DNA of 64,000 nt from an uncultured Gammaproteobacteria bacterium (lineage in GTDB: Bacteria > Patescibacteriota > Microgenomatia > Curtissbacterales > GWA2-41-24): contig CAZBKB010000003.1 of the NCBI GenBank assembly GCA_964492425.1, positions 6,682 through 70,681 on the forward strand. Reading direction: 5' to 3'. Under the pieces are notes generated by a model. It did no database searches and was not told the DNA's origin. It saw only the letters and a list, made by a program, of their open reading frames with translations. Below are positions 28,626 to 63,794 of the stretch, in pieces. Positions within the stretch are counted from its first letter, which is position 1, and each line of letters opens with the position of its first letter. A program made the position numbers and the translations under genes.

Positions 28626-28630
28626 ATTAC

Positions 28631-36685: not shown

Positions 36686-36788
36686 CAAATTATAATAAAA
36701 GGAGTTCGCTTCCAGGTAAAGCGAAGACTCTCGAAAGCAGCTCCATCCTAAATTACATAGGCGATAATTCAGTAGAGCCAGTAGTCAA

Positions 36789-37531: not shown

Positions 37532-37603
37532 TCGGGGTGCTGGGAATTGAACCCAGTGTCTCTCCGTCCCGAACGAAGCGTGTTACCGATACACTACACC
37601 CCG
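37532..37603 (-). tRNA. tRNA-Pro (anticodon CGG)
   Basis: Read on the reverse complement. Acceptor CGGGGTG/CACCCCG (C1-G72). D-arm GTGT-ATCGGTA-ACAC. Anticodon stem CTTCG/CGGAG with loop TTCGGGA (U33, CGG, G37). Variable loop AGACA. T-arm CTGGG-TTCAATT-CCCAG. Discriminator A. 72 nt. Confidence 0.8.
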
Positions 37604-47800: not shown

Positions 47801-48338
47801 TGGATAAGTCCTGTGGATTGCTGGTATCACCGTTATCTCCAACAGCAAAATAAAGTTTTCCGTCCGGACCAAATCCCAAACTTCCACCTACATGAAATTG
47901 CAGTGAAGGCGAATTTGTCCTATAAATTTCAACAGCATTTATTCCAACATCCGCCGAAGCATCAAGCCTTACAATCTTGTTCAATAAGTCATTTTTGGAA
48001 GTATAGTAAAAATACGCATAGTGATTACTGCTAAAATCCGGATCAAAAGCTACCCCAATCAACCCTCTGTCTCCGGAAGCCTCTGCATTTAAATCAACAA
48101 ACGGCGTTTGAAGTAAACTACCATTTTTGTAAATTTTTACTTTTCCTGCCCTCTCAAGTACAAAAATTCTGGAATCCGGTGCAATCGCAAATCCAGTTGG
48201 TCCATCAAGCCCGCTTCCAATAACTTGTGTTGTCTGAAAATTTACAGGTGGAGCTGCATATGTAAACTGCCGGGCTGCAAGAAATATAACGATAAAAAGA
48301 AAAATAAACCCCACACACAAACTCAATATTTTTCTCAT
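44850..48338 (-). CDS. Large secreted protein: glucose/sorbosone dehydrogenase-like beta-propeller + PKD domain + five PA14 domains
   Basis: GSDH-like motifs (GLIGVAFDPDF, HVGGSLGFGPDGKLYFAVGDNGD, GKILRINSDGTVPVDNPF, YGFRNPWRLSFDP, NYGWP). PKD YLWDFGDGTQS. Five PA14-like repeats (..FSVRWTK..ADDGVRIYVDGNLIINKW..). Confidence 0.7.
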   Translation of the reverse strand: MRKILSLCVGFIFLFIVIFLAARQFTYAAPPVNFQTTQVIGSGLDGPTGFAIAPDSRIFVLERAGKVKIYKNGSLLQTPFVDLNAEASGDRGLIGVAFDPDFSSNHYAYFYYTSKNDLLNKIVRLDASADVGINAVEIYRTNSPSLQFHVGGSLGFGPDGKLYFAVGDNGDTSNPQDLSNPHGKILRINSDGTVPVDNPFYGQAGKYGAIWAYGFRNPWRLSFDPDSGRLYVGDVGDATWEEIDLVQKGGNYGWPIVEGPCVSSCPYIQPIYAYNHNGASRAVALGPVYQGNMFPAEYKGDLFFGDYAGGFIKRLNLDSSGNYVSVADFDLNAGSVVDFKVAQDGSLYYITYFPGRLYKITYSVSNQTPIANSSADVTTSDDAPLAVHFSSSGTYDPDGDSLTYLWDFGDGTQSILANPTKIFSLGSFTVQLTVSDGVNSAQSVPIIINVGVPPTISIGAPSDGAKYKAGDTIFWIASAVDGRGIDLPSSAVSTEILLHHQTHIHPFLGPIVGTSGSFTVPMTGEDSAESWFEIKVSARDYDNLVSSKSVSVYPVTSNFTLLTSPGGMQLFLDGTLIGTPKTVTGVVSFEREIKAPLIQVLGGKNYQFANWSDGGAISRRISTPAADTTYVANYLEMPPFKGEYFTNMTLYGVPKLTRQDTVVDFNWGSKSPAAGIGTDKFSVRWTKKQYFVAGKYKFTTTADDGVRIYVDGNLIINKWVNQPPTTYSADITLTAGEHDVKMEYFENTGGAVAKLFWEIIDEAPAPIPAAGVFLAQYFNNITLSGTSVVQQNEPAINFDWGDDGSPDPLIGADNFSARYVKNDNFEAGTYEFKVTADDGVRVYIDNVLILDKWIDQAATTYTVSKDITAGMHEVKVEYYEKTGGAVLQFGYLKTGSLPPPPPPTGDYQGYYWNAGNGSSPTIPTTAANLVRNDAEINFDWDGVSPDAAINADHFIARWKARKTFEAANYRFTMVSDDGIRVYLDNVMILDQWNDHAPTTYTVDKAVTAGEHDIEVEYYENSGGAVAKFSYAKIDTPPSGDFFVAEYFDNISLSGIAKIIRQELSINFNWGNGSPDPAIPNDHFSARFGKTETIEAGTYEFTVTADDGIRLFIDGQLVIDKWIDQPPTTYKVTKSMTAGLHVIKLEYYENGGGATIVYSSKKI

Positions 48339-48466: not shown

Positions 48467-49492
48467 TTACAGGACATTTAAATCATGGATTCTATAGTAT
48501 TTTTCAAGAATGGATTGGGCTTTTTTCTCCCCCAAATCACTAAAAATTGCACTCTCACCGCCAAAACCAACCCACCAATTTACCCCAACAATACTTTCCT
48601 GTTCAGATATCAAAGAGAGTACCCGCTCAATCCATCTTGACTGTTCTTCTTCATCCATCTCTCCATGAATGTGAAGGATTGGAGCTCCGAGTTCTCCAAG
48701 TATGATCTGTGCTTTGGTCGAATTTTTAAGTTCAACGATTTGGTCCACAAAATCCTCCGGCTTTCTAGTATAATGGTCAACAACAATTAAATTGTCCATT
48801 TCAGAAAGTGTTTTTTTATCAAATACTAACTTTGCCACATCCAAATTCATGGAAGTGTAATTTGTATTTACCTTTTTGCCGGTCTTTGCAAATTCCTCAT
48901 CCATCACTCGCCTCTCGCTGGTCATAAAAGTGCGAAAACCATCAATATCAGTATTATATCTTGGGTCACCCGGTCCACCGTTCTCACATTCCGGGCATGC
49001 TGTAAAAATGTCTCCATCTTCAAATAAATCAGCATTACTGCCAATAAACTGTTTTAATTTCTCAATATGCCCATCACGATTTAAATTCTTTTCGTAACCG
49101 AACCAACCTTCCCAGGACGAAAAGTTTCCTCGAAACCATACTTTCAAATTATATTGTCTGGCAAAGTTCACCCATCGTTTTAAATAAGGGACAAATTCCT
49201 GATCGTATGGGGTATCCACTGCAACATGGGTAGCACCAGTTTTAGAAATCAGTCCCATCTGCCTGTTTATTTCTAAATCAAAAGATTGTTCTTTGAACTT
49301 TATCCTCGCCTTGTCCCTGGAATCCTTCATCGTATCTATCGATTTAACCCGCCAAACACGCCCCGAGACAGGAAATTCCAATTGCTCACTATCTTTTTTA
49401 CCGGTAGCGTTAAAAAGAGATGAAAAAATTATTAATGCCCCAAAGACCAATATTGCAGAAATAACAATCTTCTTAATATTTACTAGATTCAC
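48467..49492 (-). CDS. Membrane-anchored putative TIM-barrel glycoside hydrolase-like protein
   Basis: N-terminal TM. Composition and length resemble GH5/GH113-like barrels, but no firm motif. Confidence 0.35.
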   Translation of the reverse strand: MNLVNIKKIVISAILVFGALIIFSSLFNATGKKDSEQLEFPVSGRVWRVKSIDTMKDSRDKARIKFKEQSFDLEINRQMGLISKTGATHVAVDTPYDQEFVPYLKRWVNFARQYNLKVWFRGNFSSWEGWFGYEKNLNRDGHIEKLKQFIGSNADLFEDGDIFTACPECENGGPGDPRYNTDIDGFRTFMTSERRVMDEEFAKTGKKVNTNYTSMNLDVAKLVFDKKTLSEMDNLIVVDHYTRKPEDFVDQIVELKNSTKAQIILGELGAPILHIHGEMDEEEQSRWIERVLSLISEQESIVGVNWWVGFGGESAIFSDLGEKKAQSILEKYYRIHDLNVL

Positions 49493-51192
49493 AGTTTCTT
49501 GTATATTTTTAGATTCCCCTCACTATAAACAACCTCAAAATTATTGTATAGCAGTTCTTTATTTTCCAAAAGTTCACCTAAAGCATCACCCGAAAGATTC
49601 TCATCAAGAACCACCCAGGTTGCATGTCGGGTTGGATCTGTTAGTGAATTCCTCCACCACTTTCTACTCCCTTCGTATATAAAATTGTTATAGGAAAGTT
49701 TAGTTTGAAACATGAAATTTTCGTGCCTATGAGCACTTACTAAAATTAAACCTCCGTCATAATTCTCGCGAAACCACTTTGAATACTCAAATTCAAGATA
49801 CTCGGCCTTTTTAGGAAGAGAAAAAGTCAATAAAAATGGTGTTGCAAATAATGTATAAAGCTGGAATATAATTAGCCCAAACACAATTCCGGTTAATAAT
49901 TTATTCCTGCCGTAAACGAGCCCAATCATAACTGCCATAAGTGGTAATGTAATTATTCCATAGCGAATATTAGAACTTGACCCAAAATTTAAATTCTTAT
50001 TCAAAATATTGGCAAAAGTTACCATTGGTGTTTCGATTTTCGGGATTAACCCTTTCGAATATCCCACAATTAAGAAACCGAATACGCAAAAGGTCATTAT
50101 AAAAATCGGGGTTAATAAAACATCTAATTTTCGCCTAACAACGTTTAGCAAATTTAGAGCACATAAGTACAAGAAGGCAATTGCAGCCAGAAGACTGATA
50201 ATAATACCATTTATAAAAAGCATAGCTGTGGAATAAATTTTTAAAGCATCGAATAATTTTATATTCCTATCAGGTTCAGAAACTGCCCCGACACCCTCTA
50301 CTGTAACCACTGGATCTACGGCAATGACCAGCTTTTTACCTGTATATAAATTTAACCAGTATATCGGATCCTTAAAAATTAAAAATGAATAAAATGACCA
50401 CAATAAAATACCAAAAACAGCCAAAGTTACAAAGAAAATAACTACACCCTGTATTTTCTGTTTGTTTTTAAGTGAATAAATTGCAGCCGAAACTGCCCCA
50501 ACACTCAATGTGGCAGCACCAAATAGTGCATAACCCTCATAACGGGTCAATGTTGTTAAAATTACAAACACTGCAGCATACAACAGATGCAAAATATTTT
50601 TGGTCTTTGCCCATTTGGTTAAAAAGTAAACAATCATGACCAGTGTGAAAAGGAAAAAAGATTCACTCATAGCCATAGTTTGCAAAAAAAGTATATTAAT
50701 ATTTGTGACATACACAAACCAGGCTAAAATTCCGCCAAACCTGTTTTTCGTGATTATATAAACAGTCTTGTAGAGAAACACCGCACTTATAATAAATGCA
50801 ATCATTGAAGGAATTGCCCCAGCCAGCCCGCTATGCCATAAGAATTTATTCCAAATAAATGGCAAAAATAATACCTGCGGAAATGGAAGCCAAATACCTC
50901 CAAGCTGAGCAAAGCCAGGTGTTAATGAATCAATAATTTTTCTTGCAATATTTAGACGTGCAATTGCATCATAATCTGCCAGATTCTTATTCCCCGAAAA
51001 ATAAAACACCAAAAAAGAAATAATGCTTATAAAAATTGTTGCCAGAATAAGCCAAAAATCAAACTTATTGTAAAAAAAATCCTTTTTAAAACCGTTTTTT
51101 TGCCTCTCTTTTCTCTCACCAATAATCGAATTCGCACTGGCAAGTGCTCCATGATTCGGCAATCTTGGTGCAATCACTTTATTCCCTTTCAA
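49489..51192 (-). CDS. GT-C superfamily glycosyltransferase (PMT/ArnT-like, GT39/83-type), about 12 TM
   Basis: Multi-TM architecture with a periplasmic loop. The 4-nt overlaps with the GT2 gene upstream and the TIM-barrel protein gene downstream suggest an operon. Confidence 0.5.
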   Translation of the reverse strand: MKGNKVIAPRLPNHGALASANSIIGERKERQKNGFKKDFFYNKFDFWLILATIFISIISFLVFYFSGNKNLADYDAIARLNIARKIIDSLTPGFAQLGGIWLPFPQVLFLPFIWNKFLWHSGLAGAIPSMIAFIISAVFLYKTVYIITKNRFGGILAWFVYVTNINILFLQTMAMSESFFLFTLVMIVYFLTKWAKTKNILHLLYAAVFVILTTLTRYEGYALFGAATLSVGAVSAAIYSLKNKQKIQGVVIFFVTLAVFGILLWSFYSFLIFKDPIYWLNLYTGKKLVIAVDPVVTVEGVGAVSEPDRNIKLFDALKIYSTAMLFINGIIISLLAAIAFLYLCALNLLNVVRRKLDVLLTPIFIMTFCVFGFLIVGYSKGLIPKIETPMVTFANILNKNLNFGSSSNIRYGIITLPLMAVMIGLVYGRNKLLTGIVFGLIIFQLYTLFATPFLLTFSLPKKAEYLEFEYSKWFRENYDGGLILVSAHRHENFMFQTKLSYNNFIYEGSRKWWRNSLTDPTRHATWVVLDENLSGDALGELLENKELLYNNFEVVYSEGNLKIYKKL

Positions 51193-52084
51193 AAATGGTT
51201 AAATTTTGAGAGTTAGTCCTGAGGTTAAAGGTTACATACCGAGAAAAATTTACCGCAAATTCCAAAACCGCAAGTATAGTAAATATTGGCGACTTAAAAA
51301 AACTCAAAAAAAGCTGCTTTAAAAGTAAAATCCTGGGAAACCTGTATTCAATGTCAATATATTGCTTGTCGAAATATTGAGACAAGGCTGATTTTCCAAG
51401 ATAAAATTTGTCGCTATGTGCTTGCCGATCCTCAGTCGTACTAATATTCTTTGCTAACACCCTGGCGTCGTTTGCCTTCACCATCAGGAATCCAAGTTCT
51501 TTTAGCCTTAAATAGCAGTAGCAATCTTCAGGTACATCAGATGGAAAAAATAATTTTCTAGAAAAGCTGCGTGCAATCGCTCTCATTGTATGGCCGCTGC
51601 AATTGTATAAATTATCACCTCCGCGAAATTTTTCGAACGCGTTTTGCTTTATTTCATTTTCAGTCCGAAAAACTTTCTCAAAGAACGTTCTTGGAGTTTC
51701 CATAATATCCCTTCCAACCACCATACCGATTCTAGAGTTGTCACAGTCATGATACGGTTTAACCAGTTTTGCAAGCGTCCAACAGTCATATGGTACAGTA
51801 TCAGCTTCCACTATAACCAAAATATCCCCCTTAAATTTTGCAATCATTTGATTCTGTCTTGCCTGCTGACTCATTCTTTGTCCGTCATCATAAAACTTTA
51901 CCCTTCTATCCTTTATACTTTTAACTATTTGTGCAGTTAAATCAGTGCTCCCGTCAGAAATTATCAAAACCTCACTAAGTTTGAAACCAACCTCCTTTTG
52001 CGAAAGTATCAGCCGAACGAGCTTTCCAATATTTTTTTCTTCGTTGTAGGCAGGAATTCCGACCGTTACTTGTAAATTTTTCAT
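51179..52084 (-). CDS. Family 2 glycosyltransferase (polyprenyl-phosphate sugar transferase-like)
   Basis: VGIPAYNEEKNI...ISDGSTD motifs. Confidence 0.75.
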   Translation of the reverse strand: MKNLQVTVGIPAYNEEKNIGKLVRLILSQKEVGFKLSEVLIISDGSTDLTAQIVKSIKDRRVKFYDDGQRMSQQARQNQMIAKFKGDILVIVEADTVPYDCWTLAKLVKPYHDCDNSRIGMVVGRDIMETPRTFFEKVFRTENEIKQNAFEKFRGGDNLYNCSGHTMRAIARSFSRKLFFPSDVPEDCYCYLRLKELGFLMVKANDARVLAKNISTTEDRQAHSDKFYLGKSALSQYFDKQYIDIEYRFPRILLLKQLFLSFFKSPIFTILAVLEFAVNFSRYVTFNLRTNSQNLTIFERE

Positions 52085-53163
52085 ATTGATATTTTTGTAA
52101 ACTTGGCAAATTTCAGGGTGTTTTTTATGATTGAGCTTATCTCTTTACCTTTTAATCTTGGGTAAAGCGGCAAGCTTACACACCTTGCACCTATAAATTC
52201 TGTATTTCTTAAAGAACCTCGAAAGTATTTCTTGTAACCTTTCATTTTGTGAAGAGGCAAATAGTGAATCCCCAGATGAATTCCTGCTTTTCTCATAGAA
52301 ATCAGGAACCGGTCCCTGTTTTCAACAAGTATCGGGTACAGATGGTTGCCAGTGTTCTTAAAACCAAAAGCCTTGTTGTACTTATTAACTATTTCATTTC
52401 TTTTATTGTTAAACTTCTCAACCTTTAGAAGCTGCTTCCGCCCAATGGCTGCCTCAACATCTGTCATATCAAAGTTCCAGGAAGGAAAATCTACCTCCCA
52501 ATAAAATCCGGATGGGTCATCAACTTTTTCCCTGCCTCGGTAACGCGCCAGTGTATCTTTGGTTAACCCTCCATGGCACGCTTTTTGGTAAAAGTTCCAA
52601 TCTTTTTTACTGTTTGTCGCAATCATACCACCACGAACAGTCGTCATATTCTTGACAGCATAAAACGAATAACAGCTCACATTGCCACGAAAGTCATTCT
52701 TTTCAATTCTATGTGCACTATCATAAATAACCGGAACACTAAAACTGCTAAAACCGGTAGCATATCGTGCAGCAAAGTGTACAGGAATGATAGCTTTGGT
52801 TTTTTTAGTAATCTTACGCTTGACATCTGCCGGATCCAGACACCAATCGGACAACTTTACATCCGCAAAAACCGGCACACCGCCTGCATGTATCACCACA
52901 GCAGCTGTTGCAGTCCAGGTTAAAGAAGGCACAATCACTTCATCACCAGACTTTAAATTCAACTTGGAAAGTGCCAGGTAAAGCGCCATAGTACAACCGT
53001 TTGTAGCAACTGCATATTTTGAACCGATAAATTTGGCGAACTCTTGCTCCAGGGCAACACAATGCTGACCGCGAATGAGCCATTCCGACTTCAAAACCGC
53101 AACTGCTGCGTTTATCTCATCCCGGCCAATATTAGGTCTTGATAAATTGATAGACTTTCTCAT
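52081..53163 (-). CDS. DegT/DnrJ/EryC1/StrS family PLP-dependent sugar aminotransferase
   Basis: GDEVIVPSLTWTATAAVV, pyridoxal-Lys region SFYAVKNMT. Confidence 0.8.
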   Translation of the reverse strand: MRKSINLSRPNIGRDEINAAVAVLKSEWLIRGQHCVALEQEFAKFIGSKYAVATNGCTMALYLALSKLNLKSGDEVIVPSLTWTATAAVVIHAGGVPVFADVKLSDWCLDPADVKRKITKKTKAIIPVHFAARYATGFSSFSVPVIYDSAHRIEKNDFRGNVSCYSFYAVKNMTTVRGGMIATNSKKDWNFYQKACHGGLTKDTLARYRGREKVDDPSGFYWEVDFPSWNFDMTDVEAAIGRKQLLKVEKFNNKRNEIVNKYNKAFGFKNTGNHLYPILVENRDRFLISMRKAGIHLGIHYLPLHKMKGYKKYFRGSLRNTEFIGARCVSLPLYPRLKGKEISSIIKNTLKFAKFTKISI

Positions 53164-54161
53164 AAAACCAGCCTCTCGATCATCACCCTTTTTCTGTAAT
53201 TGGGTCTGTTTATATGATTTCTAAGGTATTTAACACGAAAATACTCATCGTCACCTAGATCTTGTATCTCTCCATTCTCAAAAGACTTATAAAGCTCTGA
53301 AATTGCATCTTTTATTGTGAAGCGGCACTTAAACTTTAATTCACTCTTAATCCTGGAAAAATCAACAAGATAACTTCTTTTATCAACATTGTCATAAAGT
53401 TGTACAAACTCAACCTTTGGTAAATATTCGGCAATTTTTACGCCCAGCTGAGAAATTTTAAAATTCTGGTCGTTCGAACCGACATTAAAAACCCTATGTT
53501 TTGGACTTTTAATATGAAGAGCAAGATAAATTGCGCTTGCAACATCCCTGACATGAACAACCGGTCTCCATTGTTCCCCACCGTTTACAACTATTTTCTT
53601 TTCAAAAAAACTGTTTCCTATCATTGTATTAACCACTAAATCAAATCGTGGCTTTTTTGAATACCCATAAACTGTTGCAAGCCTCAAAATTATGCCATTT
53701 ACGTCAGAATCTAAATAAAATTTCTCAGACAGCATCTTTGTTCTTGCATATAAAGAAACAGGATTAGGTTTGTCCAGCTCATTAAAGATTCCTCTGCTGC
53801 TAAAGCCATAAACGGAACAAGATGAAGCATAAACTACCCTTTTGTCTGTTGACCTGCACAAATTGGCAATTGTCTCGTTCGCCCGATAATTTATTTCCCA
53901 GGTTAATGAAGGCGCAAGGTCAGAAGCAGGATCGTTAGATATCGCCGCCAAATTTACGATTGCTTCATGGCAGTCAATGGCCGGTAACAAATCATTGATA
54001 TTAGTAACATCAGCATGAATAAAATTACATCCGGCGTCAATTTTTGTACCTTTCTCATATAAAAGGTTGTCATAAACAGTAACCTCATCACCCCGAGATT
54101 TTAGATATTCACACAAAACAGAACCAATAAAGCCAGCCCCGCCTAAAATTAAAACCTTCAT
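53160..54161 (-). CDS. NAD-dependent epimerase/dehydratase (extended SDR)
   Basis: MKVLILGGAGFIGSVLCEYL Rossmann motif. 333 aa. Confidence 0.8.
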   Translation of the reverse strand: MKVLILGGAGFIGSVLCEYLKSRGDEVTVYDNLLYEKGTKIDAGCNFIHADVTNINDLLPAIDCHEAIVNLAAISNDPASDLAPSLTWEINYRANETIANLCRSTDKRVVYASSCSVYGFSSRGIFNELDKPNPVSLYARTKMLSEKFYLDSDVNGIILRLATVYGYSKKPRFDLVVNTMIGNSFFEKKIVVNGGEQWRPVVHVRDVASAIYLALHIKSPKHRVFNVGSNDQNFKISQLGVKIAEYLPKVEFVQLYDNVDKRSYLVDFSRIKSELKFKCRFTIKDAISELYKSFENGEIQDLGDDEYFRVKYLRNHINRPNYRKRVMIERLVL

Positions 54162-55285
54162 AATCTCTGCCTTTCGCGTTTATCCAGATCAACAACCTCA
54201 CGGCAAAAGTTGGCATAATCTCGCGAGATATTATTCCAACCATATTTTCTGGCAAAAGGCCTGGCAGATTTAGATAATTTCAGCCGAAGCTTAGAATTAG
54301 TCGAAATTTCAATCAATTTTTGAGATAGTTCATCAACCCTGAATGGTCTCGCCTTTAGCGAAACATCATCCGTAACCCACTTCATACCGGCAACATCAAA
54401 GCAAACAACCGGTTTTGAAAAACTCGTATATTCCAGAGGAACCAGTGGAAAATCTTCAAAACGTGAAGGATACACACCAAACTTTGCACCGCGAAGTAGC
54501 AGCTCTTTCTTTTTCCCATCAGCCCTCCCGACAAATCTGACTTTACCTTCAAGTTTTTTCTTTTTTATAAGACCGACAAGTCTTTTTTCCTCATCTTTTG
54601 GTCCATTTCCTGCAATTACAAGCTTTGTCGAAACCTTCCCATTTATCCTTGCGAATGCTTCAAGTAACAAGTCCAAACCTTTTTGTACAATATCAATCCT
54701 GCCGATAAAAAGTGCATAGTTCCCATCTTTTACTTTTTTTGTAAATGCTTCCTCGCCAATACCGTTCGGAATAAGCCGAAAATGAATTTTCGGATTCATT
54801 TTCAACATTTTTTTCTGGTTTATAGGTGAATATGCAAGAAAATATTTATAGAATCTAACACCCAATTTTTCAACTAAATGAAACGGCAAATGATACTTCT
54901 TGGAAAATTCACCGGCTTCGAACATTGTAGGCATCCCGATTACAGGAATCTTGGTATAAAGCGGCGAAAAACAAGTTGAAATCGGGGCAGTAAAACACTC
55001 AATAATAACGTCTGCCTTAAATTTCCAAAGTGCAAGAGGAAGAGCCACAAAGAAAGCTGCATTGTTAAACCGTATATTAGCACTCCCCAAACCTATGTGC
55101 TTATAAAAAATCCCATAATACTTTTGGTCCTTGGATTTCGGGTACCTTGAACAAATTATCGTTACCTTATGACCCATTTTGACCAGACGCCTGCTCACCT
55201 CAAAAGTTGCCCTTGCCTGGCCACCAGACAAAAAAGGATTTTTAATATCATCAAAATCAACAAATGTTATGTGTAACTTCTTCAT
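54158..55285 (-). CDS. Family 4 (GT-B) glycosyltransferase
   Basis: GT4 C-terminal domain with an E-x7-E-like FEDFPLVPLE. Confidence 0.7.
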   Translation of the reverse strand: MKKLHITFVDFDDIKNPFLSGGQARATFEVSRRLVKMGHKVTIICSRYPKSKDQKYYGIFYKHIGLGSANIRFNNAAFFVALPLALWKFKADVIIECFTAPISTCFSPLYTKIPVIGMPTMFEAGEFSKKYHLPFHLVEKLGVRFYKYFLAYSPINQKKMLKMNPKIHFRLIPNGIGEEAFTKKVKDGNYALFIGRIDIVQKGLDLLLEAFARINGKVSTKLVIAGNGPKDEEKRLVGLIKKKKLEGKVRFVGRADGKKKELLLRGAKFGVYPSRFEDFPLVPLEYTSFSKPVVCFDVAGMKWVTDDVSLKARPFRVDELSQKLIEISTNSKLRLKLSKSARPFARKYGWNNISRDYANFCREVVDLDKRERQRL

Positions 55286-58200
55286 ATTTTCTCCCCACCC
55301 AAAGCCACGTTCTCAGTAAATTTCGGACTTTTAGCTGAATTCACTTCCCTAAGTATTAGATTGTAAAAAGCAGTGGAACTACGCTCCCATGAAAATTGGG
55401 ATGCCCACAAAGTACCCTGACGCTCTAACCTTTTTCTAAGTTCTTCATTGGATATTAAGCTTAAAATTGAACTTGAAAATGAATCTACGTTTCCCCACTC
55501 AACCAGAAATCCGTTATAGTTGTGGACAACTGAATCACGAAGACCAGCAACGCTGGAAGCGATAACAGCCGTGGAGCAAGAACTTGCTTCCACTACCGAG
55601 ATTCCCCACCCCTCTAGCATTGATGGTTGTACAAATATCCAAGATTCTGAAAGTAATTTCCACTTCAGCTCGTCATCAACCCGACCCATGAACTCCACCG
55701 AACTTACGAGTCCTAATTTTTCGACTAATCGTTTCAGAAAATCTTCACTCTCCCCTTCTCCAGCAATGATTAGTCTAGCCTTAGGATAAACAGATGCAAT
55801 TTTTATCATCGAATAAATCAATGTATCAATAGATTTATACGGTTTTAATCTACCCATGTATAAAAGTTGCGGGTATTGGGTCTTTGCATATTTATTGACG
55901 TTTACATTGTCAACTCCAGGATTAATTACTTCTATACTGTTTACAAAGCCAAGTTTTTCCAAGTCAACTTTCGAAGAATTAGACACAGTCACAAGCTTCT
56001 TATTCCTGTACGCAACAGGCATCAAAAACCCTTCTAAAACCTGTGCAATTTTATTAAACGGAAACGCAAGCTGTGTTCTAAAAACTTCTTGATGCACGTG
56101 ATGTACCAGTACAATGATCGGCAAATTTGAATACAGAGGTGTAAAAAACGGGATTCCGTTTTCGCAGTCAATCACCAGATCAAATTTTTTCCTAAATCTG
56201 AAAATGTAATAAAGAAATGCCCATATATACACTGTATAAAAACCGCCACGTCTGATAATATTTACACCATCAATTTTTTCAAACCTCAAATTATGGCCAT
56301 CATTACCGCAAAATATAGTAACCTGATGGCCCTGTTTTACTAAATTTTTTGCAATCTCATGGGCATATATCTCTGCTCCTCCTGCCCATTTGTGCTTTAA
56401 GTCTCGCCAGTTCATAATTAAAATTCTCAAGTTTGGATAAATTAATGCTTTTTTATTCTTATTAGGCGCAAACAGTAATACCAAATCCTCTAAATTCCTA
56501 CTAACAACCCGCACCCTCTCTTCAAATATGTGCATTAACAGCAAGACCACGAAACCCGATATGCTTACAATAAACATTCCGTTCACTATCTGACTAATAT
56601 TGGAATGGAAAATGGAAATCATAAAAATTTCGAAGAGTGCCAATGCTAATCCAACCGCAGGAAATAAATTTAGTTTTCTTGTCTGATGAAAAAGCATCAG
56701 AGAGGTTGATATAGTAAAAAGCAAAATCGCAAACCCAAATAGCGGCAAAAACTGCGCAATCACATGTGCCTTATCACCAAATAATATTGGCGCACTTATA
56801 TGCCCAAAAAGACCAATTGCAATATATGCCCCACAGGCACCGATTGACGAAAGTGCGAAAATTTTATTAAATGTGCTCTTACTCTTTTGGCCCTCTCCTT
56901 CTTCTTTAGAAACTATTGGAGTAATAAATTGCGAAAAAAGGGAACCTATAAAGAAAATCGACTTGGCGGCAATAGAAAGTAATGCGTACCTCCCGGCTTC
57001 TTCATTTGGTAAATAATGCTTCGCTAAGATTAAATCCAAGCTTATAAATGCAACGATCCAAAACTTCGTCAAGATCGAAGTAATAAAAAACTTAGATGGG
57101 AATAAAAGATGGTCTTCAATTCTCTTATGTTTTGCCTTACCAAGCCTCGAAGCATAAATCCAACCTGCGCAAAATGCGATTACCAGTGAGATTGGAATCG
57201 CCACATAAACAAATCTTCCAAATCCCATTTCAACCAAGAACCAGGTAAACATTAACCTAGAAATAGCCTCAACGACTAAAAGGATCCCGACTGCCTGGTA
57301 CTTATGACTTCCAAAAATAAAACCTTCATCGACAGCTGCAACTGCACCAACGAGCCAAACCGGCGAAAACAGAATAAACGGCAAAATAGAATTTTCTCTA
57401 AAATAGACACTAAAAAACGGTGACAAAATGATCCATACAAGTGCAACCCCGCAGCTCAACAGGAAAACTTTCTTTCTTGTTTGCCTCCAAAATTCAGATA
57501 TCACTTCCTTGTGCTTGCCCAGGAAAAAAGCGGTCTTGTGGGTAACAGTTCTTGAAAGTGATACGAAAAGTATTGTTGTTAAAAATGTAAAACTGCCGAT
57601 TAGAGAAATAAGTGCGTAACTTTCCAAAGAAACAGCTCTTGTTAAATATGCGTTGTAAATGAAATTCAAAAAGTTGGCAAATACTGTCGAAATCACCAAA
57701 AATGAACCGGAACCTGCCAGATAACCGGATATTTTTGGGAGTCCAGGAATATTATTCTTTAGCCTCGGTAAACTTAAAAAACTATATACCCCTTCAAATT
57801 GAGACCCAAATACTGCCTTAATATTTTGCCAAATAGATAATGTGCCGGATAGTTCGGTTTGTTTGATATTCAAACCGTGCTGTGTCTTTTCCCAAAAATG
57901 AGGCTTAAAGATTAACTGGTGCAACCCAACGAGAGCCGCAACACTCCCTAATAACCAGTACAAAGGAATTAAAAATACATATTTTACAAGAGACCACTGT
58001 TCACGTTTAGCACAACCGATCATGAAGAAATACATGTACATAAAGTTCCCAAAAACAAGGGAAATTATTGCCATATAAAAAACAGGTGCCGGATAAAGCT
58101 TATTTACGGTTTCCCCCATAATCGAAAAGAGCGGAAAATACAGTAGTGTTACTAACCACAAAATTGGGTTAATAAACATAAATGCAATTTTTCCACCCAA

Positions 58201-59994
58201 AAGAAGCTGGAATACAAATGCATGTAATCCATATTCTCTATAAAATTTCAGCGGGTTTCTCGTATGTACAAGATAGGTTTGCATGTAACCCTTAAGCCAG
58301 CGGGAACGCTGCCTGATCCAATTGCCAACCCTGCTATTTGCCTCTTCATACGTAGTAGAGTCAATAACAGCCGTTTTGTAACCTGCTTTGAAAAGCCTTA
58401 CGCCAAGGTCTGCATCCTCGGTAACATTAAAGGGGTCCCATCCTTCTAATTTTTTAAGTTCGTCAACCGGAAAATGGTTACTGGTTCCTCCAAGAGGAAT
58501 ATTGGTTTTAATGGATTGCAAACCCATAAGTACAACGTCAAACCAGAGGGAATATTCTGCTGTAAAAAGCCTGGTCAAAATGTTTTGATGGGCGTTGTGG
58601 TAGTTTAATTTCGCTTGAAGACACATCACATCCCGTGGTACTTTTGAGAAAGCTATGTACGCCTTTTTCAGCTGTTTTGGGTCCGGTACGTCCTCGGCAT
58701 CATAGACAACCAAAAGCTCTCCCCTCGCATGCCATAATCCCCAGTTACAAGCCTTGGGTTTTGTCTTTGGAAGAGAATCGGGAACAACAAGTGTACTTAC
58801 ATAAGATGGCAAATTACCCGCTTCGCACAACTCAATACTCTCACGGTCATCTTCCTCAAGAAGCAATATTGTATCCAGCTTGTCTTTTGGCCAATCCAGT
58901 TTATCAATTGCTCCTAAAAAATTAGGTAAAATTTCAGCCTCTTTATACAAAGGACAAAGTATTGTATATATTGGCAAATCAGATTCAACCAAAGCATCAA
59001 TTTCCTCATCAGTTACACTAATGGCAGACTCATGATGAAGGCTTCTTAAAATAAGAAAGAAGTTAAAAATTACATCAACAAAGTAAACAACGCTTAAAAC
59101 CCCAACGAATATTCCAAGTGTAAAAAGTACATTTTTGAAAAGACCATAAGACACCACACCAAACAAGAAAAATACAAATAATTTTTGCCAGGCAACAAAA
59201 TTTTCAAGAGCGCTTATATCGGATTTTAATATTGTATGTGTTATATATCTCTTTCCACCATACGCGACTCCCGCACCAATGTTTGTATCGCTCGCTTTGG
59301 GTTTAAAATAAACAGGTTCAATTCTTCTAAGCTTTAACAGCAGTGCATTTAGAAACAGTTCAACTGAGACTTTGCCAACATTAAGTTTAGATTTTCCAGC
59401 ATTTCTTTTTTTAAATTCAATATCATGGCTGCCGATAGTAAAACCGGCTTCTTTTGCCCTTTTCAAAAATTCAAGGTCAAATGTCCAAGCGCTTTTAGCC
59501 CTATAAGAGATAGTTTCTATCACCTCGCGCCTAAAAACCTTCAAACCGGATTGTACGTCGGCATTAATATCAAAAAATAGATTGGAAAATACGTTTTTAA
59601 AAGTTTTACTTAAAAAGGTTCTTAATTTACCGGTTTTATTTACTTTTCTGTTTGCAACAACAATATCGTAATCTTTTAATCTTTTTAACATTTCATAAAT
59701 CTCCCCGGGGTCATATTGTAAATCTGAGTCCAGAATTGCCAATATATCATATTTTGCGCTCAAAAATCCCTGAATTAGCGAATAAGCCTTACCCTTTTTG
59801 CCAGTTTTCCGAAATACGCGAATAGGGTGTAAACTTGAAAGCTCATTTAAAAACTCAAATGTACCATCCTCTGATTTATCATCAACAAAAATAATTTCAA
59901 ATTCCAAATAAGGTAATAAGGCCTCCTCAAGCCGCAAAATAAGAGGTTCAACGTTTTCCCTTTCGTTATATGTCGGAACAATGACACTAAGCAT
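55282..59994 (-). CDS. 1570-aa fusion protein: GT2 (Dpm1-like) + processive CESA-like GT2 (QxxRW) + multi-TM transporter/flippase-like region + GT4
   Basis: N-terminal VIVPTYNERENV. QRSRW motif. About 20 predicted TM helices in the middle. C-terminal EGWGISVVEA GT4 motif. One continuous ORF. Confidence 0.65.
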   Translation of the reverse strand: MLSVIVPTYNERENVEPLILRLEEALLPYLEFEIIFVDDKSEDGTFEFLNELSSLHPIRVFRKTGKKGKAYSLIQGFLSAKYDILAILDSDLQYDPGEIYEMLKRLKDYDIVVANRKVNKTGKLRTFLSKTFKNVFSNLFFDINADVQSGLKVFRREVIETISYRAKSAWTFDLEFLKRAKEAGFTIGSHDIEFKKRNAGKSKLNVGKVSVELFLNALLLKLRRIEPVYFKPKASDTNIGAGVAYGGKRYITHTILKSDISALENFVAWQKLFVFFLFGVVSYGLFKNVLFTLGIFVGVLSVVYFVDVIFNFFLILRSLHHESAISVTDEEIDALVESDLPIYTILCPLYKEAEILPNFLGAIDKLDWPKDKLDTILLLEEDDRESIELCEAGNLPSYVSTLVVPDSLPKTKPKACNWGLWHARGELLVVYDAEDVPDPKQLKKAYIAFSKVPRDVMCLQAKLNYHNAHQNILTRLFTAEYSLWFDVVLMGLQSIKTNIPLGGTSNHFPVDELKKLEGWDPFNVTEDADLGVRLFKAGYKTAVIDSTTYEEANSRVGNWIRQRSRWLKGYMQTYLVHTRNPLKFYREYGLHAFVFQLLLGGKIAFMFINPILWLVTLLYFPLFSIMGETVNKLYPAPVFYMAIISLVFGNFMYMYFFMIGCAKREQWSLVKYVFLIPLYWLLGSVAALVGLHQLIFKPHFWEKTQHGLNIKQTELSGTLSIWQNIKAVFGSQFEGVYSFLSLPRLKNNIPGLPKISGYLAGSGSFLVISTVFANFLNFIYNAYLTRAVSLESYALISLIGSFTFLTTILFVSLSRTVTHKTAFFLGKHKEVISEFWRQTRKKVFLLSCGVALVWIILSPFFSVYFRENSILPFILFSPVWLVGAVAAVDEGFIFGSHKYQAVGILLVVEAISRLMFTWFLVEMGFGRFVYVAIPISLVIAFCAGWIYASRLGKAKHKRIEDHLLFPSKFFITSILTKFWIVAFISLDLILAKHYLPNEEAGRYALLSIAAKSIFFIGSLFSQFITPIVSKEEGEGQKSKSTFNKIFALSSIGACGAYIAIGLFGHISAPILFGDKAHVIAQFLPLFGFAILLFTISTSLMLFHQTRKLNLFPAVGLALALFEIFMISIFHSNISQIVNGMFIVSISGFVVLLLMHIFEERVRVVSRNLEDLVLLFAPNKNKKALIYPNLRILIMNWRDLKHKWAGGAEIYAHEIAKNLVKQGHQVTIFCGNDGHNLRFEKIDGVNIIRRGGFYTVYIWAFLYYIFRFRKKFDLVIDCENGIPFFTPLYSNLPIIVLVHHVHQEVFRTQLAFPFNKIAQVLEGFLMPVAYRNKKLVTVSNSSKVDLEKLGFVNSIEVINPGVDNVNVNKYAKTQYPQLLYMGRLKPYKSIDTLIYSMIKIASVYPKARLIIAGEGESEDFLKRLVEKLGLVSSVEFMGRVDDELKWKLLSESWIFVQPSMLEGWGISVVEASSCSTAVIASSVAGLRDSVVHNYNGFLVEWGNVDSFSSSILSLISNEELRKRLERQGTLWASQFSWERSSTAFYNLILREVNSAKSPKFTENVALGGEKI

Positions 59995-60135
59995 GGCAAG
60001 CTAATTTTTAGGGATATTAAAAATCCCAACGGGCAGCGCAAATTAACGATTGAACATATTATCATATAGTAATCACGTTTACAAGTTAAATCCAAAATAT
60101 TAAATATCTTATAATTTTGAGGTGTAAGCTAAAAC

Positions 60136-62322
60136 TCAAGCTTTTTGAAGATCTGTTTTCCTGCGGAGAACAAAAGTTGCAAGCCCAAGAATAGCAAATG
60201 CAATTGCCATTCTAAGATAAATAGGCATACCAAAATCAAACGGGTCTCTTTCCGCCCTATATGTGGTTATAGATTGGACTTGGGTATCTGGCCCCTCACC
60301 TTCAACTGACCCGCCGCCAGCTTTTGAGAAGAAATTTTGATTTAAAATAGCAGCAACTTGAGCCGATAATCCTGAATCTCCTCCAGATGTTGAAAAACCA
60401 TCATCCGAAGAATTCGAAGAAGAATTTGAGCTAATCGCGCTGTTTGTTTGGGAACTTGAATTTCCTACATTTACTCCCCCGACTGCAGGAATTTGACCTG
60501 TAAATCCTGCCGGCACGAAATTACCAATCCAGGATCCAAATACGTTTACCAATGTCATCACAACTTTGCGGCCTGAGAAATTTGAGTTAATAAAGTTGAT
60601 CACATTCACTACAATATTAGCATCACCTGTTGTGATACTTGAATTTCCACCTGTATTCTTGCTTGCATCATTTCCACCAGTATTGGCATCGATATTAATA
60701 TTGTTAGTAATTGTCCCGTTATTATTTATATTTGTGTAATTTGTATTTGTATTGTTAATCTCTGAACTGTTAACAGAATCTGTCCCGTTATTTTGGTTCA
60801 TAGCAACCAACTGACCATTTTGATCTACAAAGAAAATTGAACCATCCGATGTATAGAAATAAGTGCCTGGTGCCGCCCCTAAAATCTGTCCCTGCCAATC
60901 TCCCGAAATGTCGTTTATGAATACAAAATAGATAGGTTCGCAGCTTCCGGCCGTTACGTTTACGTTGGCAATGTTGACAACGTTTGCATCAACATTGACA
61001 TCCCCCGTACTTATAGTGCTGAAACCTCCTGTATTGCCACTTGTACTGTTACCACCTGTACTTGCGTCTAGGTTAAGGTTATTTTCAACTGTGGTCTTAT
61101 TGGTTACATTGGACGTATCTGTGTTTGTGCTGTTAACTGTCGCGTTGTTTGTCGAATCGCTCCCGTTGCCTATATTGGTTGCTGTCATATCTTGGCTACA
61201 TTCACAGGAACAATCAGACGTGGGTCCTGTAATACCTGGCTGGACAATGTTTCCGACCATATCACCGAAGATGTTAACAACATTCATAGCACCATCTACA
61301 ACAGTATTTAGTGCGTTTACTACATTGGCAACTACATTAGCATCACCTGTATCGATGGTAGAATCACCACCAGTGTTTTTACTTGTCTTGTTATAACCGG
61401 TATTGGCATCTATATCGATATTATTTACGATATCCCCATTGTTATTGACCGTCTCCACATTTGTATTTGTATTATTAATTGTCGAATCATTTGTAGAATC
61501 TGAACCATTCCCTATATTTTGTGCAGCCAATGTTGAGGAGTCCAAAAGTATATCCCCATTATAGTTTCCGTTAACATCAAACTGATAAACTCCAAGGCTT
61601 ACTTCATTAGCATCTGTAATCACCGTAACAACAACATTTGCATCGCCTGTTATGATCTCGCTGTCTCCAACATTGCCTGATGCGTCGTTGTAGCCGGAAT
61701 TAGCATCGAAATCCAAGTTATTGTCAATATTTGCATTATTGTTAATGACTACGGCTGTATTATTGTTATTGTTTGCAGTTGCTGTATTGTCCGATCCCGA
61801 TCCGTTTGCACTGTTTGTGACGGTCGTATCGCCGACACAGGCACTACAATCGCCATCCGTAGAAATTGCAGTATTATTGGCGCTGGTTGTCAAAACGCCG
61901 TTGGCATTGGCGTCGCCGGTATTAATAGAAGTGTCTCCGACATTTCCGCCACCGTCTATTCCTCCGGTAGAATCAGTAGCACCGGGGTTCTGGCTTGCAA
62001 GCCAGGCCTGGTATTCCTGCCATCGCCTTTCTTTCTCGTCATCACTAATGTAATAGTCGGTTTTACTATCCCCGTCACGGTCATCTGGATCAACCACACT
62101 TGGGCCATCCCAACTGCTAACAGGTGTAGGCAAAGGTGACGCTACTATAGTTGGATCCGGACTTGAAGCCGGGCTCGGTTCCGGACTTGGTGAAGGCCCA
62201 GACTCAGAATCTGACGGCGCGTCTAGGCCTGGATCATTCCCTGCCATTACCACCATGGTCGGGTTCAAAACCAAGCTCAAAGACAGGAATATGGATATTA
62301 ATGTTTTTTTCAGTTTAATCAT
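60136..62322 (-). CDS. Secreted 728-aa N/T/G/D-rich repeat protein with a C-terminal TM + RRK tail
   Basis: Signal peptide. PSPEPSP linker. Repeats of NTGG(D/N)S(T/S)I(D/T)TGDANVV.NV.N. Cys pairs (DCSACVGD, DCSCECSQD). C-terminal MAIAFAILGLATFVLRRK. Confidence 0.5.
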   Translation of the reverse strand: MIKLKKTLISIFLSLSLVLNPTMVVMAGNDPGLDAPSDSESGPSPSPEPSPASSPDPTIVASPLPTPVSSWDGPSVVDPDDRDGDSKTDYYISDDEKERRWQEYQAWLASQNPGATDSTGGIDGGGNVGDTSINTGDANANGVLTTSANNTAISTDGDCSACVGDTTVTNSANGSGSDNTATANNNNNTAVVINNNANIDNNLDFDANSGYNDASGNVGDSEIITGDANVVVTVITDANEVSLGVYQFDVNGNYNGDILLDSSTLAAQNIGNGSDSTNDSTINNTNTNVETVNNNGDIVNNIDIDANTGYNKTSKNTGGDSTIDTGDANVVANVVNALNTVVDGAMNVVNIFGDMVGNIVQPGITGPTSDCSCECSQDMTATNIGNGSDSTNNATVNSTNTDTSNVTNKTTVENNLNLDASTGGNSTSGNTGGFSTISTGDVNVDANVVNIANVNVTAGSCEPIYFVFINDISGDWQGQILGAAPGTYFYTSDGSIFFVDQNGQLVAMNQNNGTDSVNSSEINNTNTNYTNINNNGTITNNINIDANTGGNDASKNTGGNSSITTGDANIVVNVINFINSNFSGRKVVMTLVNVFGSWIGNFVPAGFTGQIPAVGGVNVGNSSSQTNSAISSNSSSNSSDDGFSTSGGDSGLSAQVAAILNQNFFSKAGGGSVEGEGPDTQVQSITTYRAERDPFDFGMPIYLRMAIAFAILGLATFVLRRKTDLQKA

Positions 62323-62525: not shown

Positions 62526-63794
62526 TTAAGCAATTAATGCCAAAAGCAATAAGAGAACAGACATAGAACCACCCATTTCCGGAAGGTCAAAATCTACATC
62601 TCCAAGTACGTTAGAGTTTGCAGTGTTCTCTACTTCTACGTCTGCGTCTGCATCACCAGTGGTAACCGATGGATCACCACCATGGGTGTTGTCATTGACA
62701 TCGTTTTTACCGGTGTCCAAATCAACATCCACTTCGTTGCAGTCATTCTTGTGACCACGCCAGAACCATTCCTGGTATCCGCCTTTGCCACAATCATAAT
62801 CGTTTGTTTGGGTAATATACTTAACAGATGTCAAGTATGCCTTAACAGTATTGTCACTGTCAGAACCGTTACCCTTTACTAGAACGTCTAGGTCTTCAAG
62901 ACAACCACAACCTTCTAGCTCTGCTGCATTGAAGTTAGCCATATTACTGACATTAACGTCTGCATTTGCATCACCTGTGTCGATTGAAACATCGCCACCT
63001 GTGTTGTCATTTGCATCGTTTTTACCTGTATCGGCGTCTACGTCGACATCGTTAGAAATGTCAGCATAATTGGATTGGTTGATAGTGTTATTAGAAGTCA
63101 AATTAACTTTGACTGTATTGTCGCTATCAGAACCGTTTCCAGAAATTTCGACAGCTACTCCACCGCCGTTTCCGCCGGTAATAGCCGCCCAGTTTGCGTT
63201 TGCTTGGTTACTTACAGTAACGGTCGCATCTGCATCACCAGTTTCAACGGAAACATCACCACCCGTATTACCGTTTGCGTCGTTCTTGCCGGTGTCTAGA
63301 TCAACATCGACATCGTTATCGAACTCAGCATTGTTCGTCTGGGTGATGGAATTTGTGTTGTTAGACGTGAACTTTATTTTGTTCTCATCATTGTTTCCAT
63401 TGTCTGTTCCGTTACCCTTAATGGTTAAGGTAACGTCATCTGGACAACATCCGTCAACGCTAGCCTGGTTTGAATTAGCAGTGTTTGTAACACTTACTGT
63501 CGCATCAGCATCACCTGTGTCGATAGAAACATCGCCACCTGTGTTGTCGTTTGCGTCATTGTTACCAGTGTCAGCGTCTACATCTATGTTGTTGGAGATG
63601 TTAGCTGTATTGGTTTGGTTAACGGTAGTTGTGTTTGTTTGGTTAACTTCAACAGTGTTGTCGCTATCCGAACCGTTTCCAGAAATTTCAACTGTTGTTG
63701 CCGCAAGAGGCATAGCAAATGAGGAAACTACCAAAGCAGCTGTAGAAGCAGCAGTTGCAAGTTTTATTGCAATTTTGTTCATATTATTTTTCAC
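62526..63794 (-). CDS. Secreted 422-aa N/T/G/D-rich repeat protein with a C-terminal LPEMGG + hydrophobic tail
   Basis: Signal peptide. Four repeats of NGSDSDNTV.VN.TN...N.DVD.DTGKNDANDNTGGDVS(I/V)(D/E)TGDA(D/N)A.V.V(S/T)N. Cys pairs (DGCCPDD, EGCGCLED). C-terminal DLPEMGGSMSVLLLLLALIA. Confidence 0.5.
   Translation of the reverse strand: MKNNMNKIAIKLATAASTAALVVSSFAMPLAATTVEISGNGSDSDNTVEVNQTNTTTVNQTNTANISNNIDVDADTGNNDANDNTGGDVSIDTGDADATVSVTNTANSNQASVDGCCPDDVTLTIKGNGTDNGNNDENKIKFTSNNTNSITQTNNAEFDNDVDVDLDTGKNDANGNTGGDVSVETGDADATVTVSNQANANWAAITGGNGGGVAVEISGNGSDSDNTVKVNLTSNNTINQSNYADISNDVDVDADTGKNDANDNTGGDVSIDTGDANADVNVSNMANFNAAELEGCGCLEDLDVLVKGNGSDSDNTVKAYLTSVKYITQTNDYDCGKGGYQEWFWRGHKNDCNEVDVDLDTGKNDVNDNTHGGDPSVTTGDADADVEVENTANSNVLGDVDFDLPEMGGSMSVLLLLLALIA

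Follow-up and report, generated by a model that had tools for sequence, protein, structure and literature searches.

With regard to the closest described systems, biochemistry in lactococci and streptococci has revealed that WpsA and GacI, which resemble dolichol-phosphate mannose synthase (DPMS) and have no transmembrane (TM) helices, make undecaprenyl-phosphate-linked GlcNAc (C55-P-GlcNAc), and that elongation in the cytoplasm, a Wzx-type flippase and a transferase of the GT-C glycosyltransferase (GT) fold act on the way to the finished glycan (PMC10821137). In the same source, the DxDxQ motif is described as the signature of polyprenyl-phosphate (Pren-P) GTs. The MshEN domain is known as a receptor for cyclic di-GMP (c-di-GMP) (PMC5013675). 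In this study, a window of 64,000 nucleotides was analysed (contig CAZBKB010000003.1 of assembly GCA_964492425.1, positions 6,682 to 70,681 of the forward strand), which GTDB places in the Curtissbacterales of the Microgenomatia, within the Candidate Phyla Radiation (CPR, Patescibacteria). The subject is a single open reading frame (ORF) in which four modules appear to be joined: a Pren-P-type GT of family GT2 (M1), a BcsA-like GT2 synthase (M2), a flippase-like domain (M3) and a GT of family GT4 (M4). We observed that this fusion is a real, conserved multi-enzyme membrane protein family of Microgenomates. To our knowledge, the cell-surface chemistry of CPR bacteria is almost entirely undescribed.

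Conservation and modules of the fusion

The ORF runs through 1,570 codons without an internal stop, and its coordinates, length and single-ORF character agree exactly with a preliminary description made from the DNA letters. Its stop codon shares 4 nt with the start of the next gene (Table 1). When 5.8 billion proteins were searched with the fusion, 1,508 matched, and the best 120 of these, representing clusters at 90% identity, were examined. They come from many samples, are 1,533-1,607 aa long and align over 98-100% of the query, all of them colinear and full length, with identities of 44-60% to the window fusion and 44-89% (median 51%) among one another. Those that carry names belong to Candidatus Curtiss-, Beckwith-, Levy- and Gottesmanbacteria, Microgenomates or Patescibacteria, and their database label is 'glycosyltransferase' and nothing more. 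Moreover, scanning one genome per GTDB species disclosed at least 596 matched stretches that encode a relative of the fusion. The four-module fusion is common within the clade, as a large family in many species-level genomes; the rarity claimed for it earlier holds across bacteria generally, but not within Microgenomates, where all 120 best clusters are full length.

Table 1. Features of the fusion and its operon, in coordinates of the window
Feature	Position	Strand	Basis or remark
Whole four-module ORF M1-M2-M3-M4	55282..59994	-	ATG start, 1,570 aa
M1, aa 1-260, putative DPMS/GtrB/ArnC/GacI/WpsA-like GT2	59215..59994	-	Pfam, PDB sequence matches, motif
M2, aa 265-712, putative membrane-embedded processive-type GT2 synthase	57859..59202	-	Pfam, BcsA similarity, motifs
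Variable linker between synthase and flippase, aa 713-754	57733..57858	-	44% gaps, poorly conserved in the alignment of 120 sequences
M3, aa 755-1178, predicted 12-TM MOP-superfamily PST/Wzx-like flippase domain	56461..57732	-	AF2 fold, Foldseek, Polysacc_synt signal
M4, aa 1190-1550, putative GT4 (GT-B fold)	55345..56427	-	Pfam, PDB sequence matches, EX7E
Stand-alone GT4, 375 aa	54158..55285	-	Coupled to the fusion; in 20 related loci, 34-44% identity
SDR epimerase/dehydratase, 333 aa, variable sugar-nucleotide gene	53160..54161	-	Pfam Epimerase 4e-44
DegT/PseC/ArnB-type sugar aminotransferase, 360 aa, variable gene	52081..53163	-	Pfam DegT_DnrJ_EryC1 3e-75
Soluble GT2, 301 aa	51179..52084	-	Homologues in 35 related loci
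Predicted GT-C-fold glycosyltransferase, 567-aa ORF (called 562 aa), polytopic	49489..51192	-	AF2 and Foldseek
Secreted or anchored protein w341, 341 aa, last gene of the operon	48467..49492	-	Conserved family
Promoter-like site TTAACT-17-TATGAT	60061..60089	-	Weak; within the 141-nt AT-rich gap upstream of the fusion

A long ORF of this kind might also be an assembly chimera or a set of neighbouring genes joined by a frameshift, with a middle region of hydrophobic filler rather than a transporter. Split versions of the same modules in four related loci can be read in favour of such a joining, and they indicate that gene boundaries at the module junctions are evolutionarily labile. However, an identical 1,570-aa protein was called on four contigs; two of these belong to a metagenome assembly at ENA and to a Logan assembly, the latter derived from a separate sequencing run, and the family search also lists an NCBI source. 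These independent contigs, the 120 colinear homologues and the pattern of indels, which are restricted to the linker (aa 701-750) and the termini in the alignment of the homologues, rule out, as far as sequence data can, the chimera or frameshift that the preliminary description had wanted to see checked. The catalytic motifs of M1, M2 and M4 are invariant or nearly so in the 120 homologues, indicating that all four modules are most probably maintained under selection as active enzymes, and the middle region is modelled confidently as a transporter of the multidrug/oligosaccharidyl-lipid/polysaccharide (MOP) superfamily. We regard the probability of an artefact as negligible.

With reference to the individual modules, M1 gives a Pfam match to Glycos_transf_2 (aa 3-161, 1e-35), and its best solved relative in a PDB sequence search is the DPMS of Pyrococcus furiosus (5mlz, 1.3e-24), with further matches to GtrB (5ekp, 8e-13) and ArnC (4e-11); partial NCBIfam matches to PgfS, ArnC and AglJ each fell under the equivalog cutoff. 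The extended DxDxQ motif is present as D89-S-D91-L-Q93 (nt 59716-59730), with D89 and D91 kept in 120/120 homologues and Q93 in 115/120. By catalytic-domain similarity and by this motif, M1 is classed as a putative enzyme of the DPMS/GtrB/ArnC/GacI/WpsA type. It harbors no TM helix of its own; the helix pair at aa 272-315 was considered as a GtrB-style anchor for M1 and rejected, since stand-alone M2 orthologues have at their N-terminus a TM pair with which these helices align.

M2 shows the strongest conservation of the four modules (~80% column identity). Pfam matches to Glyco_tranf_2_3 (3e-29) and Glyco_trans_2_3 (3e-21) span aa 343-653, and the catalytic core resembles BcsA (4hg6/5ej1, ~7e-07). 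Two predicted TM helices (272-290 and 297-315) precede the GT-A domain, which is followed by about four more (591-628, 636-662, 673-696). Residues 240-720 of the window fusion share 51% identity over 445 aa with a stand-alone MshEN-GT2 protein of Paraconexibacter, the N-terminal TM pair included, so that the pair at 272-315 belongs to M2. The motifs D432AED435, T525ED527 and Q562RSRW566 (the last at nt 58297-58311) are found in 120/120 homologues, save T525 (116/120), and such family motifs suggest that M2 may carry out processive polymerisation and export. A close homology to NfrB was rejected (E. coli NfrB, 22% identity, E 0.004), and a Pfam scan of the window fusion detected no c-di-GMP receptor domain (PilZ or MshEN).

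For M3, PDB sequence searches of the MOP region with the single sequence and with a profile gave nothing usable, and a fold search was therefore employed. From 33 family sequences, an AlphaFold2 (AF2) model of aa 745-1185 was obtained with a pLDDT of 90.7 and a pTM of 0.90, and the best 50 Foldseek matches listed against the PDB were all MOP proteins (MATE, WzxE, MurJ), the lipid III flippase WzxE giving TM-scores of 0.64-0.72 (9g9o, 0.67-0.72). Polysacc_synt matches M3 in 11/30 relatives (best 4.6e-11), and Polysacc_synt_3 and MatE in one each. On this model, M3 is a predicted 12-TM flippase domain of the polysaccharide transporter (PST)/Wzx-like kind, and its family and context suggest that it may translocate a polyprenyl-linked glycan. 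At E <= 1e-30, the M3 profile matched 1,160 of 1.84 billion cluster representatives; judged by length and match position, MOP-GT4 proteins (~800-865 aa) and stand-alone proteins (~400-475 aa) far exceed the four-module forms.

M4 displays Pfam matches to Glyco_transf_4 (5e-17) and Glycos_transf_1 (9e-40) over aa 1205-1528, together with an EX7E motif (E1461...E1469, nt 55588-55614) whose two glutamates are found in 120/120 homologues. With an N-domain, a C-domain and EX7E, it reads as a retaining GT4 enzyme. Its PDB sequence matches include PimB' (3okc, 4e-13), PimA (2gej, 2e-12), TarM and BshA, a likeness that appears generic, as many families are equally close.

Hydropathy disclosed a helix pair at 272-315, some four helices at 590-696 and a run of roughly twelve at 759-1154, and together with the helices of the AF2 model this amounts to ~18 TM helices: 2 + 4 around the second GT2 and 12 in the MOP domain. 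GT domains need cytoplasmic nucleoside-diphosphate (NDP) sugars, so that the TM counts should be even; with 2, 4 and 12 helices, all three GT domains of the fusion would face the cytoplasm. The order put forward earlier, a Dpm1-like GT2, a processive GT2 with QRSRW, a transporter-like core and a GT4, agrees with Pfam, the PDB sequence matches, the motifs and the structure model, and the AF2 model of the middle region, whose transporter features had been left in question, is that of a MOP transporter. The exporter core of roughly 20 TM helices has to be reduced: the total is ~18, six of these belong to the synthase, and only the remaining 12 form the predicted flippase.

Operon context and relatives in other phyla

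The fusion is the first of seven overlapping genes, with overlaps of 4 nt at five junctions and of 14 nt at 51179-51192, which suggests translational coupling. A scan for promoters and terminators gave no more sites than shuffled controls. For the SDR (short-chain dehydrogenase/reductase) protein every NCBIfam match was under its cutoff, as were the PseC (3.5e-62) and ArnB (1.6e-60) matches of the aminotransferase. Elsewhere in the window, a phosphoglucomutase/phosphomannomutase gene (19754-21142) could supply sugar-nucleotide synthesis. In the fusion and the operon genes scanned, to which the search was limited, we detected no Bac_transf or MraY-like (PF00953) phosphoglycosyl transferase of the WbaP/WecA type, and no Wzz was found among the operon genes scanned. 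A canonical Wzx/Wzy-dependent pathway was not adopted, because the operon has no phosphoglycosyl transferase.

The GT-C gene product has no Pfam match in the window protein itself, whereas its family shows PMT_2 in 10/120 listed homologues and PMT in one. Its AF2 model (pLDDT 88.9) found only GT-C proteins at Foldseek PDB ranks 1-31, among them DPY19, STT3, ALG12, ArnT, PglB, Pmt4, Emb and AftA, and residues D70, R74 and R79 in the N-terminal region are invariant, with a probable placement near the first external loop. Homologues were located in 62 loci, and the protein is modelled as a GT-C-fold enzyme and conserved partner of the synthase. The family of w341 keeps 40-48% identity in 24/27 loci, mostly directly after the GT-C gene; it has invariant D/E residues, with GELGAP in the window protein and GEFGAP in the family consensus, and is tentatively read from its sequence as a clan GH-A-like glycoside hydrolase, probably an exo-hydrolase. 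A second polytopic family, mp510 (~500-555 aa), is homologous to the GT-C protein (hhalign 92%, E 5.6e-07) and lies directly upstream of the GT-C gene in ~35 related CPR loci. PDB sequence searches with the GT-C, mp510 and w341 profiles gave no usable solved relative.

To compare the related loci, module hidden Markov models were mapped onto 87 of them. In nearly all full-length CPR loci the order is the fusion, variable GT2 (~300 aa), GT4 (~370-400 aa) and sugar-modifying genes, then mp510 where present, GT-C and w341. Additional cytoplasmic GTs are always present, and nearly all full-length loci have one or two GT-C genes and the conserved secreted protein. M1, M3 and GT-C are co-encoded in the window operon, and the same set recurs in nearly all full-length CPR loci. 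The idea of a self-contained synthase-exporter in the preliminary description does not stand, as the fusion heads an operon with further GTs, usually with GT-C and the secreted protein. Beside the four-module form, the architectures M2-M3-M4, M1-M2-M4, M1-M2 / M3-M4, M2 / M3-M4, M1 / M2-M3-M4 and M1-M2 / M3 were recognized; M1-M2 and M3-M4 are separate two-module proteins in three loci, and M2 stands apart from M3-M4 in two. One locus, from a metagenome-assembled genome (MAG) titled Saccharimonadales, harbors two tandem M1-M2 paralogues and an M2-only gene, each adjoining its own GT-C, beside a four-module gene. Many species-representative MAGs with CPR-type operons are titled 'uncultured Gammaproteobacteria', 'Bdellovibrionales', 'Pseudomonadales' or 'Verrucomicrobiia'; judging from what these genomes encode and from the 45-56% identity of their proteins to those of Microgenomates, such record titles appear taxonomically wrong.

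Outside CPR, orthologues of M2 with 45-56% identity were observed in Chloroflexi, Solirubrobacterales/Paraconexibacter, Paenibacillus, Cohnella, Desulforamulus, Sporolactobacillus and others. In Actinobacteria, Chloroflexi and Firmicutes, M2 sits C-terminal to one to six MshEN domains, sometimes with DUF4388 beside MshEN. Of 39 non-CPR loci, 31 have a GT-C gene that belongs to the window's GT-C family and is either joined to M2 or found elsewhere in the locus, mostly as the direct neighbour of M2; four loci of Chloroflexi/Ktedonobacteraceae encode M2 and GT-C as one protein of ~960-1,000 aa. An M1-like GT2 (>=85 bits) is present in 11/39 of these loci, and in one locus of Solirubrobacterales a MOP flippase and an M1-like GT2 are fused (698 aa). 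The Paenibacillus orthologues, including those of P. polymyxa, bear the generic label 'glycosyltransferase family 2 protein', and our literature search on MshEN-GT2 proteins in Gram-positive bacteria found nothing relevant. The non-CPR MshEN-M2 family appears to represent a glycan system of cultivable bacteria that is controlled by c-di-GMP and has yet to be characterised. In the CPR version, M1 takes the N-terminal position of MshEN, so that no second-messenger control is apparent.

Upstream of the fusion, two minus-strand genes (60136-62322, 728 aa; 62526-63794, 422 aa) encode proteins that carry a signal-like helix at the N-terminus and a TM anchor at the C-terminus and consist of degenerate N/D/T/G-rich repeats (…GNGSDSDNTV…DVDADTGNNDANDNTGGDVSIDTGDADA…), the larger also with a Pro/Ser-rich stretch. 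Neither has a Pfam match, and related genes lie near the fusion in only three other loci; the two are possibly surface or S-layer-like proteins and candidate glycosylation targets. Beyond the other end of the operon, a minus-strand gene (44850-48338) encodes a secreted protein of 1,162 aa in which PKD domains and four PA14 domains accompany a glucose/sorbosone dehydrogenase (GSDH) beta-propeller, and a perfect sigma-70 consensus, TTGACA-17-TATAAT, stands directly upstream of it at 48404-48376. The window also encodes an M23 peptidase, a PEGA-domain protein and a CAP-domain protein, as well as large ORFs of 1,195, 985, 864 and 579 aa (25038-32400 minus, 9607-12201 plus, 37664-39403 minus) that have no Pfam match at 1e-5, as is typical of the 'dark' proteins of CPR. 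GC skew is negative in nearly all 2-kb bins (cumulative -4.68 over 64 kb) and the long ORFs of the second half lie mostly on the minus strand, consistent with a single replichore with no origin or terminus in the window. The only Rfam matches in the window are three tRNAs: Trp (365-436), Arg-CCT (36612-36686) and Pro-CGG (37531-37603).

A proposed pathway and its rivals

The pathway that we propose, and to which we give an even chance, couples a synthase-made backbone with a lipid-linked Wzx/GT-C track, both serving one product. It starts from the identities of the modules, the conservation of their motifs, the conserved operon, the GT-C fold and the linkage of M2, GT-C and Pren-P-GT-like genes across phyla; with regard to the substrates, the lipid that carries the glycan, its acceptor and the coupling as such, we infer the following scheme. 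M2 would polymerise a backbone glycan from an NDP-sugar and extrude it through its own TM channel. M1, TM-less like GacI and WpsA and tethered by the fusion, would move a sugar onto polyprenyl phosphate; M4 and the strain-variable soluble GT2 and GT4 enzymes would lengthen this monophosphate-linked glycan, the side unit in the window organism probably including an amino sugar that the SDR and DegT enzymes supply. M3, which is fused to M4 and forms with it a separate M3-M4 protein in many relatives, would flip the glycan, and GT-C would transfer it, outside the membrane, to the polymer made by M2 or to a different acceptor in the wall. Where present, mp510 may polymerise the unit before this transfer, and w341 may trim or release the polymer. 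In free-living relatives, the same synthase would be gated by c-di-GMP through its N-terminal MshEN.

What argues for coupling is the set of alternative fusions: by 'Rosetta stone' logic, M1-M2, M3-M4, M2-GT-C and MOP-M1 indicate functional coupling of the parts, and M2-GT-C together with M1-M2 argue that the two tracks serve one product. Such fusions predict a direct cooperation of synthase and lipid-linked Wzx/GT-C steps, routes that are normally held separate. On the other side, several points weigh against the coupled pathway. The Polysacc_synt (PF01943) signal of M3 is sub-threshold in the window protein (25.5 bits against a cutoff of 28.2, 1e-05), and the hydrolase assignment of w341 is weak, with Glyco_hydro_cc weakly matched by 4/23 members (best 8e-4). 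A tblastn search of the whole window found no mp510, which implies that the pathway differs between genomes and may mean a non-polymerised side chain in the window organism. M1-M2-M4 variants lacking the MOP domain occur in five loci, with no other M3-type MOP gene found in the flanks examined, so that the flippase is not indispensable in cis. Furthermore, the acceptor of GT-C would on our scheme be the M2 polymer, to which protein or peptidoglycan are alternatives, and the fusion could reflect co-localisation or the streamlining of CPR genomes rather than substrate channelling.

The first rival is a pair of independent pathways, in which M2 makes a homopolymeric exopolysaccharide while M1, M3 and GT-C carry out a GtrABV- or Ppm1-Pmt-like glycosylation of surface proteins or the wall, possibly of the Ser/Thr/Pro-rich anchored proteins encoded upstream, the fusion serving only co-expression or tethering in a streamlined genome. 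Such an arrangement draws on the protein O-mannosyltransferase families PMT_2 (ten) and PMT (one) among the listed GT-C homologues, on DPY19, STT3 and Pmt4 among its structural matches, on a Dol-P-Man synthase as the best solved relative of M1, on the existence of MOP-less variants and on the large secreted, C-terminally anchored proteins upstream, with sortase genes nearby in related loci. Yet the upstream surface-protein genes are not kept beside the fusion in other loci, the variable cytoplasmic GTs enclosed by conserved ends point to an oligosaccharide, not to a single sugar, as the unit, and the Chloroflexi M2-GT-C fusions, with the near-universal adjacency of M2 and GT-C across phyla, argue for the same product; we consider the separation of the two tracks unlikely. 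A lipoglycan route in the manner of lipomannan (LM)/lipoarabinomannan (LAM) or lipoteichoic acid (LTA) seems to us more improbable still. Here M4 and the soluble GTs would glycosylate a lipid anchor, M3 would flip it, the GT-C enzymes would elongate it outside with Pren-P-sugar from M1, and M2 would make either an additional polymer or a different head group for the glycolipid. The solved relatives PimB' and PimA of M4 fit this route, but that similarity is generic (E ~1e-13, with many families as close); M1 resembles DPMS/Ppm1, and two GT-C paralogues per operon in most loci recall the PimE/Mpt enzymes. The M3-M4 fusion suggests that the lipid-linked product of M4 is the cargo of M3. Against this route, the PST/Wzx flippases characterised to date, as far as is known, carry polyprenyl-linked glycans (PMC10821137), and the most conserved module, M2, is left without a clear role.

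Returning to the coupled pathway, its extension beyond CPR is put forward tentatively, at somewhat less than even confidence: an unrecognised, multi-phylum glycopolymer route in which a BcsA-like synthase is obligatorily coupled to GT-C and to a supply of polyprenyl-P-sugar or oligosaccharide, so that the backbone is decorated or extended outside from lipid-linked units, with c-di-GMP control through MshEN in Firmicutes, Actinobacteria and Chloroflexi and a hard-wired, single-polypeptide form in CPR. If true, it would be a hybrid of the synthase-dependent and the Wzx/GT-C-dependent routes, which are textbook alternatives, and possibly the source of the main wall glycopolymer of Microgenomates. 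CPR bacteria live attached to other cells; an all-in-one enzyme heading a strain-variable operon is a strong candidate for the maker of a major CPR surface glycopolymer, and hence for a part in host and phage recognition. The triad with its c-di-GMP receptor in cultivable Paenibacillus (P. polymyxa homologues included), Cohnella, Desulforamulus and Paraconexibacter makes the proposal genetically testable.

Comparison with known systems

Taken singly, the modules are ordinary and belong to known superfamilies, and it is the fusion itself that is undescribed, rather than any exotic mechanism; we found no paper describing the CPR fusion or the triad of synthase, GT-C and Pren-P GT, and as our coverage of the literature is incomplete, this is an absence of evidence. 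M1 shares with Pyrococcus DPMS the DxDxQ motif at identical residue numbers (D89, D91, Q93). DPMS has four TM helices and GtrB two, whereas M1 has none and is instead fused ahead of the TM domain of another enzyme. M3 has a predicted 12-helix MOP fold in common with WzxE, TacF, GacK and MurJ, together with a Polysacc_synt signal that is sub-threshold in the window protein and clear in 11/30 relatives; in contrast to the solved MOP members, with which it shares only 12-15% sequence identity, it sits between two enzymes in one chain.

BcsA-type synthases (BcsA, PgaC/IcaA, NfrB and the hyaluronan and chitin synthases) resemble M2 in their D, DxD, TED and QxxRW motifs and in the predicted TM helices on both sides of the GT-A domain, although the match to BcsA is weak and no BcsB/PgaD-like co-polymerase was seen. 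NfrB, like the non-CPR orthologues of M2, is fused to the c-di-GMP receptor MshEN, which is C-terminal in NfrB but N-terminal in the relatives of M2; the class of c-di-GMP-gated synthases does not fit the CPR protein, because it has no receptor domain. M2 has a GT-C enzyme as its constant partner; such a pairing is not known for any characterised synthase, and our literature search brought up no description of one. The mycobacterial pathway of phosphatidylinositol mannosides (PIM), LM and LAM resembles the CPR set at the family level only, with PimA/PimB'-related GT4 enzymes, the DPMS-like synthase Ppm1 and several GT-C enzymes; it includes no processive GT2 synthase and no Wzx-type flippase, and its genes are unfused.

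Comparatively, the same set of components as in the CPR operon is found in the 'four-component transmembrane glycosylation system' for the side chains of the lactococcal polysaccharide pellicle (PSP; WpsA/B-WpsG-WpsH/I/J) and the streptococcal group A carbohydrate (GAC; GacI/J-GacK-GacL), with strain-variable GT genes likewise placed between conserved genes. In those systems, cytoplasmic GTs lengthen the monophosphate-linked unit, and GT-C enzymes polymerise it or attach it outside (PMC10821137). The likeness is one of components, for here the primer GT, the flippase and one elongating GT4 are joined with a BcsA-type synthase in one polypeptide. In place of the activator GacJ/WpsB, the fusion provides the tether, and where the acceptor backbone of PSP and GAC is an ABC-transporter-dependent rhamnan, that of the CPR system is presumed to be the product of the synthase.

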